Sequence record: PQ438391.1
DNA from: Escherichia phage vB_Eco_T-01
Reading direction: 5' to 3' (one strand)
Length of the DNA stretch: 64,000 nucleotides
Below the pieces are notes generated by a model. The model was not told the origin of the DNA. It saw nothing but the letters and a program-made list of their open reading frames with translations, and searched no databases. Shown here piece after piece: positions 12,304 to 13,064 of the stretch. Positions within the stretch are counted from its first letter, which is position 1, and each line of letters begins with the position of its first letter. The position numbers and the translations under genes were made by a program.

Positions 12304-12444
12304 ATGATATTTCTTGGATATGTGATACTTTTTCTTGCATTTTATCTATTCACTAGAGCATGTTGGATTGGGTTCTTTAGCACACCAGATGGGTTTATTT
12401 CAATAATTTTATTTTGCATTTCAATGACGGTTCTTGATATATGA
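12304..12444 (+). CDS. hypothetical hydrophobic peptide
   Basis: 46-aa ORF with GGAG RBS; ATGA-coupled to the GIY-YIG ORF. Confidence 0.35.
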   Translation: MIFLGYVILFLAFYLFTRACWIGFFSTPDGFISIILFCISMTVLDI

Positions 12445-13064
12445 AAAAATATATAACTTATTTAACAATATATAGTGGAGATAAACTTCCTCCTTTTTAT
12501 ATTGGATCTACGTCTTTAGATAGGCATTTAGCTGGATATCATGGTTCAGTTTTATCTAAAAAGTATAAGAAAATTTATAATAAAGAGCTTTCAGATAATC
12601 CTCACTTATTTGATTCATGCATTTTAGCTGAATTTGATACGCGTGAAGAAGCTATTAAATGCGAGTTATATTATCAACGATTGCATGATGCAGTTAAAAA
12701 TCCATTATTCTTTAATATGTCATATGCTGCTCCAAAAGGTTCATTTGGAAGAGATAATAAAGGACAAAATCATCCATTATATGGTTCTCATAATTGTAAA
12801 GGAAATATACATTCACATGATCCATTAACAGGAAAATCTGCCTTTTTGCCTTATATTCCAGAAGGTTATGTAAAAGGAAGGTCAAATAAATTTAAAGCTT
12901 CATCACATAATAAAGGTAAAAAATGGTATAATAACGGAGTTAAGCAAATGTTATGTCATGAACCTCCTGGTCCTGAATGGACAAAAGGAAAAATTAAAGA
13001 ACTAGTTTCAAAAGCAGCTAAATTAGGATGGAAAAGACACCATGAAAATACTAAACTTGGGTGA
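12441..13064 (+). CDS. GIY-YIG homing endonuclease (Seg-like, free-standing)
   Basis: 207 aa; YITYL...FYIGST...R..H..E motifs; AT-rich; 3' end overlaps gene 47 start. Confidence 0.85.
   Translation: MKKYITYLTIYSGDKLPPFYIGSTSLDRHLAGYHGSVLSKKYKKIYNKELSDNPHLFDSCILAEFDTREEAIKCELYYQRLHDAVKNPLFFNMSYAAPKGSFGRDNKGQNHPLYGSHNCKGNIHSHDPLTGKSAFLPYIPEGYVKGRSNKFKASSHNKGKKWYNNGVKQMLCHEPPGPEWTKGKIKELVSKAAKLGWKRHHENTKLG

Follow-up and report, generated by a model that had tools for sequence, protein, structure and literature searches.

SegE of phage T4 is the product of a free-standing GIY-YIG homing endonuclease gene located between inh/hoc and uvsW. GIY-YIG superfamily proteins are recognized by a 'GIY' and a 'YIG' motif which lie 10–11 residues apart, and their canonical catalytic arginine, which follows the YIG motif, corresponds to R27 of I-TevI, the endonuclease of the td intron. 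These enzymes gain new targets in a modular fashion. Here we describe a gene of this type in a stretch of 64,000 nucleotides (nt) from Escherichia phage vB_Eco_T-01 (PQ438391.1), hereafter the window, which is part of a T4-like (Tequatrovirus) genome and is read from gene 55 through a-gt and 47 to 46. The gene is an open reading frame (ORF) of 207 amino acids (aa) at 12441..13064, between genes 47.1 and 47, and its product probably belongs to the T4 Seg branch of the GIY-YIG enzymes, as a free-standing homing endonuclease.

Site-specific cleavage has been reported for SegB, SegE and SegG (PMC2330249; titles in the reference list of PMC10448857). The title of the SegG paper, as given in that reference list, refers to marker exclusion with co-conversion and to a 'distant cleavage site'.

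The class of the endonuclease described here is well known, but this member of it is uncharacterised. A full-text search of the literature found no paper describing its gene, and the GenBank records name the ORF 'putative homing endonuclease' (in the BASEL phages), 'homing endonuclease', 'HNH endonuclease' or 'hypothetical protein'.

Protein family and catalytic residues

An earlier note, made from the letters of this DNA, had described the ORF as encoding a GIY-YIG endonuclease resembling the T4 Seg proteins. The ORF list confirms its coordinates and places it on the + strand with an ATG start. In an alignment of 37 homologues, which extends down to about 35% identity, the columns of Y7, Y20-I21-G22-S23, Y33, G35, S39, E75 and N92 are invariant. 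A 'GIY'/'YIG' pair is present: Y7, which lies in an [IV]-T-Y context, precedes Y20-I21-G22 by 13 residues. When the protein is aligned with the T4 Seg proteins and I-TevI, E75 and N92 fall on E75 and N90 of I-TevI. The AlphaFold2 model has the GIY-YIG alpha/beta fold, with a three-stranded sheet packed against helices. Its predicted local distance difference test score is 84 overall, above 90 over residues 1–90 and about 55 in the C-terminal tail.

The likeness to the Seg proteins proposed in the note is borne out by comparison with the T4 endonucleases, whose sequences were drawn from the T4 record. A profile of the family of 37 homologues matches SegE with 36.1 bits, in an alignment that spans nearly the full length (model positions 24–201), and it also matches SegG (19.7 bits), SegC (17.7), SegA (14.2), SegD (12.7), SegF (12.6) and SegB. 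BLASTP against a database of nine proteins gives SegG (27% identity, E 3e-5) and SegE (28%, E 2e-4). In the profile alignment, the C-terminal half of the endonuclease and the C-terminus of SegE have the motif W-x-NNG...P-[DE]-G-[WF]-x-KGR in common, and this motif is found in both SegE and SegB. No Pfam NUMOD model matches the endonuclease at E ≤ 1; its NHPLYG element aligns with the NUMOD3 element of the homologues, 17 of which (out of 37) match PF07460.

Four observations weigh against the assignment or against activity. The Pfam GIY-YIG model (PF01541), which the note had proposed to search together with a BLASTP comparison to the Seg and I-Tev proteins, gives 21.4 bits, just below its gathering cut-off of 22.6 (E 3e-4); 14 of the 37 homologues match the same model at E ≤ 0.01, the best at 2.4e-5. 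The family profile has no match among the PDB sequences even at E ≤ 10. The segment FEKRWKRHF, which carries R27 in I-TevI, has no counterpart in the alignment either in the endonuclease or in T4 SegA-E. Lastly, SegD reportedly fails to home its own gene (title in the reference list of PMC10448857), so that membership in the Seg group does not guarantee mobility.

On sequence alone, the support for the GIY-YIG assignment is marginal; a relation to the GIY-YIG enzymes was found. The signature as the note gave it holds for the Tyr, the YIG, E75 and N92 but not for the Arg of 'LDRHL': this position (28) is occupied by R, K, N, Q or E among the 37 homologues. The absence of the canonical Arg would be a trait of the Seg branch and not a sign of inactivity, because the R27 segment is likewise missing in SegA-E. 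As to which basic residue might stand in for R27, K40/K41 or R68 can be guessed at.

In PHROGs the endonuclease belongs to phrog_10820 (E 1e-94), which carries the label 'HNH endonuclease', and it has a weaker match to a 'homing endonuclease' family. The same HNH label is found in many RefSeq records. It is wrong for this endonuclease family: the HNH/beta-beta-alpha-metal motif was not found, no HNH model of Pfam matches the endonuclease at E ≤ 1, and the fold and motifs are those of GIY-YIG enzymes. A search of NCBIfam gave nothing beyond a chance match.

Anatomy of the insertion

Pairwise alignment shows that the window is exactly 601 bases longer than T4 at the ATGA junction of genes 47.1 and 47. 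In T4 this junction reads …TTCTTGATATATGAAAATTTTAAATTTAGGTGATTGG…, in which the ATGA is both the stop of 47.1 and the start of gene 47. In the window, …GATATATGAAAA opens the endonuclease ORF, and a second ATGAAAA, 601 nt further, opens gene 47. The endonuclease gene uses the ATG and the upstream context that serve gene 47 in T4, and the relocated gene 47 starts inside the final codons of the endonuclease ORF. The stop codon of 47.1 overlaps the ATG of the endonuclease gene just as it overlaps that of gene 47 in T4. The gene is free-standing: both of its neighbours are intact, and it is contained neither in an intron nor in an intein.

The earlier note had placed the ORF between agt and 47, coupled through ATGA to a hydrophobic micro-ORF of 46 aa. 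The coupling is as described, but the micro-ORF is T4 gene 47.1, and the exact place of the endonuclease gene is between 47.1 and 47. The 47.1 protein of the window is 100% identical to that of T4 and to those of loci without the insert, and it matches phrog_6693 (E 1.5e-31). The micro-ORF was considered as a possible part of the mobile element and rejected as such for Tequatrovirus, where it is present in relatives that have no endonuclease gene. The other structural claims of the note were correct: in line with its statement that T4 has no seg gene in this interval, the T4 annotation shows no gene between 47.1 and 47, the last 23 nt of the ORF overlap the start of gene 47, and the ORF is richer in A/T than its neighbours. 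The latter difference is real but small (G+C of 27–31%, compared to 33–38% in a-gt and gene 47).

Presence and absence among T4-like phages

Alleles were counted in the GenBank phage collection with two 80-nt chimeric junction probes. The site is occupied in 69 records, in which the 3' end of the endonuclease gene is joined to gene 47, and the 47.1/47 junction is empty in 435. The insert is present in about 14% of the Tequatrovirus records, that is, in about one in seven T4-like coliphages, and the spacing from 47.1 to 47 is 601 nt larger in all the insert-carrying loci than in the empty ones. A megablast search with the region retrieved 523 phage records with the flanks, only 68 of which hold most of the query. 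These counts, and the exact 601-base pair (bp) difference from T4, support the proposal of the note that the gene is an independent insertion: the comparison of the junction across T-even genomes that it called for yields empty-site alleles in abundance, and the gene is absent from many close relatives.

In public metagenome and viral contigs, three loci are occupied and eight are empty. A scan of IMG/VR with gp47 gave 28 loci, and the insert is present in none of the six that belong to Tequatrovirus. The population counts rest on the GenBank phage collection because a metagenome scan with a degenerate gene 47 start gave only five loci.

One record stands out by its name. PV654520.1, 'Pseudomonas phage vB_PSGBLB0006' (142 kb, host P. 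aeruginosa), contains the Tequatrovirus region at 98% identity; the entry is probably mislabelled or contaminated.

Homologues in other genera

At least four other genera have full-length homologues (50–76% identity) directly upstream of gene 47, namely Mosigvirus (QL01, vB_EcoM_005 and AV116), Jiaodavirus (SmallBear), Winklervirus (LC53) and Biquartavirus (L9-6). The homologues overlap or abut the start of gene 47 in all of these phages except LC53, in which a gap of 121 nt separates the two genes. The overlap is 23 nt in L9-6, where the protein ends in ...ENSALR*, and 14–23 nt in QL01 and SmallBear, where the C-terminal ...ENS* or ...ENNS* is read across the ATG of gene 47. Within each genus the endonuclease gene is patchily distributed: 47.1 takes its place in four Mosigvirus loci, and among related Klebsiella phages it is found in about 4 of roughly 110 records.

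The start of gene 47 is recoded in carriers of Mosigvirus and Jiaodavirus too. In QL01, codons 3–6 are ATT CTT AAT ACG, compared to ATA TTA AAC ACA in relatives without the gene. Codons 3–7 of SmallBear gene 47 are ATA ATT CAT AGC GGA, compared to ATT ATT CAC TCA GGC in a relative with an empty site; the differences include a switch between serine codons (TCA>AGC).

Two of these phages show further peculiarities. In vB_EcoM_005 (locus 2249–3004 and 3001–3360), gp47 is foreign over its first ~120 aa and matches the relatives over the rest, which looks like a co-conversion tract. The endonuclease of this phage has 251 aa and a different C-terminal third, and nuclease motif I of its gp47 is GDLHIG instead of GDWHLG. 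In SmallBear, the cassette also contains an ORF of 53 aa (162 nt with the stop; locus 1346–1507) upstream of the endonuclease gene, and it replaces an intergenic region which, in relatives without the cassette, has a hairpin, a promoter-like sequence and a Shine-Dalgarno sequence.

Paralogues are found at another gene. In TG1 (locus 1498–2181) and Bp7 (1504–2184), they are located directly upstream of gene 39 and overlap its start by 8 nt. They have the same catalytic domain but another C-terminal half, which fits a modular acquisition of targets.

Recoded codons of gene 47 and the likely target

Gene 47 of the window differs from that of T4 by four synonymous substitutions in codons 3–6 (Table 1). 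Carriers of the insert read ATG AAA ATA CTA AAC TTG, and T4-type empty sites read ATG AAA ATT TTA AAT TTA. The recoded form is found in 68 of the 69 insert-carrying records. The only carrier with T4-type codons, ERS-1, was not retained as a real exception: it is an 'UNVERIFIED_ORG' record full of indels. Eight of the 435 empty junctions, from seven phages (e.g., SHFML-26), have exactly the recoded form; one further record is one position off, RB14 has one of the four changes, and the rest are T4-type. The empty-but-recoded genomes have the downstream haplotype of the carriers. Their junctions are most simply explained as precise losses of the insert; a deletion between the two ATGAAAA repeats would leave exactly such junctions.

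In a matrix of single-nucleotide polymorphisms (SNPs) from 24 loci, only the four recoded sites distinguish carriers from empty alleles of the T4 type, and polymorphisms 30–60 nt to either side are already shuffled. The likely target of the enzyme is the 47.1/47 junction with the first codons of gene 47, because the homologues sit there and the codons are recoded across genera. This indirectly supports the note, which had expected a cleavage site in the agt/47 region. The 5' sequence of gene 47 is kept across genera, and its codons 7–11 encode phosphoesterase motif I (GDWHL). There seems to be a somewhat better than even chance that codons 3–6 are part of the recognition site, and their recoding is a candidate for target-site immunity.

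The recoding might have another origin. It could be an old polymorphism linked to the insert, or an adjustment of the C-terminus of the endonuclease, while the real cut would be made elsewhere, possibly hundreds of bases off, as has been reported for SegG. This explanation, although doubtful, is the most serious of those considered, and several results speak for it and against immunity. The recoded positions are only 8–17 nt from the insert, a distance at which tight linkage alone would preserve the association. When the window is compared to T4 alone, the clustering of the SNPs in a 10-nt stretch has a P value of ~3e-4, which rises to ~0.25, and is thus non-significant, once all positions are corrected for. 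The recoded nucleotides also encode the C-terminal tail of the endonuclease, so that the recoding could serve that frame; in QL01, it creates the TAA stop of the endonuclease ORF. In Jiaodavirus, the whole of the first ~100 nt of gene 47 has diverged, so the recoding is less specific there. The eight recoded alleles without the insert, the single change in RB14 and the 'distant cleavage site' in the title of the SegG paper (reference list of PMC10448857) point in the same direction. On the other hand, three genera show synonymous changes at the same four or five codons, through different substitutions, one of which is the TCA>AGC switch. Linkage also fits poorly with the SNP matrix, in which no other sites separate the two groups and shuffling begins so close by. 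An adjustment of the C-terminus is at odds with the low confidence of the model in the tail, whose length and sequence vary between genera.

The first ~300 nt of gene 47 (13042–13340) also exist as a third, T6-like haplotype (loci L005, L006, L024, L031, L034 and L052), which has about 16, 7 and 19 differences in successive stretches of 100 nt and then becomes nearly identical; the mosaic boundary is sharp.

Is the endonuclease active, and for whose benefit?

It is improbable that the protein is an inactive relic, i.e., a former homing endonuclease which is kept by its linkage to the essential gene 47, whose translation start it supplies. Broken copies do exist: that of GEP001 (locus 1940–2488) has a nonsense codon (G183*), those of KNP1 and KNP5 cover 64–71% of the query in two pieces, which is consistent with internal deletions, and ESh36 and ZCEC15 each have theirs in two separate pieces. 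Sequencing errors may account for some of the degenerate copies, whose existence is consistent with what is expected from the life cycle of a homing gene. A relic would also account for the missing canonical Arg, and the eight empty-but-recoded junctions indicate that the gene can be lost harmlessly. However, 50 records encode the protein with 100% identity, and it is intact in eight of the nine Tequatrovirus carrier loci with a readable ORF, and the catalytic Tyr, Glu and Asn are invariant even in the most distant homologues. The gene is found on differing flanking haplotypes (fPS-90, for example, carries it with a T4-type a-gt allele) and at the same site in five genera, which requires repeated transfer. 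Moreover, SegA-E of T4 also lack the Arg segment, and cleavage has been reported for SegB, SegE and SegG in the sources given above.

An active nuclease might instead be kept because it benefits the phage, by excluding the markers of competing T-even phages or by local recombination or amplification near the recombination genes, and not as an element that is selfish alone. In co-infection, SegB reportedly favours the inheritance of its region (PMC2330249), and it is reported to promote the amplification of anti-defence loci (PMC13096335); several endonuclease genes in the 55–46 interval are polymorphic (mobB in T4, the 46.1/46 ORF in T6 and T2). A benefit to the phage is just as unlikely as a relic, given that a sporadic selfish element fits the low frequencies in Tequatrovirus and Klebsiella phages better, and it differs in emphasis only, the cleavage mechanism being the same.

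Proposed mechanism and significance

In a mixed infection, an active selfish endonuclease would cut the co-infecting phage's empty allele at, or close to, the 47.1/47 junction. T4 recombination would then repair the break from the carrier genome, and thereby copy the endonuclease gene and the adjacent recoded start of gene 47. The carrier allele would escape cutting through the synonymous recoding of codons 3–6. The mosaic flanks of the carriers and the foreign N-terminus of gp47 in vB_EcoM_005 are compatible with such a biased inheritance with co-conversion.

The endonuclease gene is most likely co-transcribed with 47.1, 47 and 46 and translated by coupling to 47.1. Co-transcription is proposed because there is neither a promoter-like signal above chance nor a late-promoter box nearby: downstream of the UUCG-loop hairpin that follows a-gt, matches to sigma-70-like promoters are at chance level, and the T4 late-promoter box (TATAAATA) nearest to the gene in the window is at 32315. 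A hairpin that would mask the ribosome-binding site was also considered and rejected, the start regions folding no better than their shuffles; the one clear element is the hairpin after a-gt. The translation of gp47 would in turn depend on the 3' end of the endonuclease gene, probably by termination and reinitiation.

It is conceivable, if rather unlikely, that the endonuclease forms a long-lived lineage which, in five or more genera of Straboviridae, follows the start codon of the Mre11-like gene 47 and seizes its translation-initiation region on insertion, so that gp47 is translated from within the 3' end of the endonuclease ORF. The expression of gp47 would then be tied to the translation of a selfish gene. 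If so, coupling to gp47, which itself processes the breaks used for homing, would stabilise the element and time its expression with that of the repair machinery.

These results offer a concrete candidate target for an enzyme of the Seg family, the 47.1/47 junction of T4, T2 and T6 (…TTCTTGATATATGAAAATTTTAAATTTAGGTGATTGG…), and natural alleles, presumed resistant, that could serve as controls; the gene is present in some of these (the window and 68 other records) and absent from others (the SHFML-26 type). The locus would exemplify a homing gene that targets an essential gene at its first codons, parallel synonymous recoding of a target in three genera, and an apparently precise loss after which a resistant empty site remains. 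The general understanding of homing is unchanged; what is of modest interest is the clear candidate target, the parallel recoding and the capture of the translation start of gene 47 by the endonuclease gene.

Features of the locus and neighbouring endonuclease genes

The features of the region are collected in Table 1.

Table 1. Coordinates in the window of the endonuclease gene, its insertion site and the flanking features.
Feature	Coordinates	Strand	Remarks
a-gt	11062–12264		From the ORF list
UUCG-loop hairpin, 3' of a-gt	12262..12281	+	Fold energy -13.1 kcal/mol, z -2.1
Gene 47.1	12304..12444	+	Resident, predicted membrane protein of 46 aa; T4 annotation; outside the insert
Probable Seg-type GIY-YIG endonuclease ORF	12441..13064	+	207 aa, ATG start, stop within the coordinates
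N-terminal catalytic domain	12441..12731	+	aa 1 to ~97; Y7 ('GIY' Tyr), Y20-I21-G22-S23, Y33, G35, S39, E75, N92
C-terminal putative DNA-binding half	12750..13061	+	NUMOD3-like NHPLYG, two beta-hairpins including KWYNNG...PGPEW.KG, terminal helix (secondary structure from the model)
601-bp insertion relative to T4	12441..13041	+	Junction ambiguous within the 7-nt direct repeat ATGAAAA (12441–12447 and 13042–13048)
Overlap of the endonuclease ORF with gene 47, 23 nt	13042..13064	+	Last 7 codons and stop (HENTKLG*), in another frame than the gene 47 start
Four synonymous substitutions, gene 47 codons 3–6	13050..13059	+	13050 A, 13051 C, 13056 C, 13059 G; T, T, T, A in T4
Gene 47	13042..14061	+	Mre11/SbcD-like nuclease subunit; presumed target gene; Pfam Metallophos; T4 annotation

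The neighbouring gene a-gt exists as two diverged alleles. The protein of the window is about 91% identical to that of T4 and more than 99% identical to those of several other Tequatrovirus loci.

Two more sites of the region are polymorphic for endonuclease genes. In T4, a-gt.2 and a-gt are separated by mobB, the gene of an HNH homing endonuclease; at this place (10995–11062) the window has only 66 nt, that is, an empty mobB site. An extra ORF is present between 46.1 and 46 in T6, T2, SHFML-26, BCPEco_001 and PhiZZ23, and is absent from the window (site at 14245–14508 / 14505) and from T4. It is annotated 'homing endonuclease' in several records and has 855 nt where it is complete (T6, locus L052, 3964–4818); other loci end inside the ORF (L042, L044, L047 and L051, from 3504 or 4206). 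The 55–46 interval thus holds at least three polymorphic endonuclease genes.

Comparison with known systems

I-TevI and the endonuclease of the window resemble each other in the aligned catalytic Glu and Asn and in a layout of two domains with a NUMOD3-type element, which is putative in the endonuclease of the window. I-TevI is encoded in an intron, however, and has the helix segment with R27 which is absent here and in SegA-E; the sequence similarity of the catalytic domains is below what HMMER detects.

The paralogues next to gene 39 (gp009 of Yersinia phage TG1 and gp108 of Dhakavirus Bp7) have a catalytic domain that is 45–67% identical to that of the endonuclease, and they too are free-standing genes that run up to an essential gene's start codon. 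They differ in their C-terminal half, which contains NUMOD3 repeats and a terminal helix-turn-helix region like that of SegA and SegF, and in their neighbour, the gene of the topoisomerase II large subunit.

SegG (gene 32.1 of T4) aligns with the endonuclease over 109 aa of the catalytic domain in BLASTP, and its 'PPYYYIGS' is similar to 'LPPFYIGS'. Like the gene described here, those of SegG and SegF are free-standing and are located beside essential replication or recombination genes (32 and 56, respectively), but the C-terminal halves of the proteins are unlike. The cut of SegG is described as distant from its gene, whereas the recoded codons suggest recognition beside the insertion point in the present case.

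SegE is the best match in T4, with a BLASTP alignment of 193 aa. Both proteins have YIG-x-x-S-x-x-(L)-x-x-GY-x-GS, the E...N pair and the C-terminal W-x-NNG motif, and they are of similar size (205 aa for SegE, compared to 207 aa). Both genes are intergenic, and each adjoins a gene of DNA metabolism. The endonuclease differs from SegE in that it has a conserved 'LPPF' before the YIG and a conserved 'SKKYKxIY' after GY-x-GS, and in that its gene, for which no own promoter was found, overlaps the start of an essential neighbour. It is found at another locus than SegE, and its target is presumably different.

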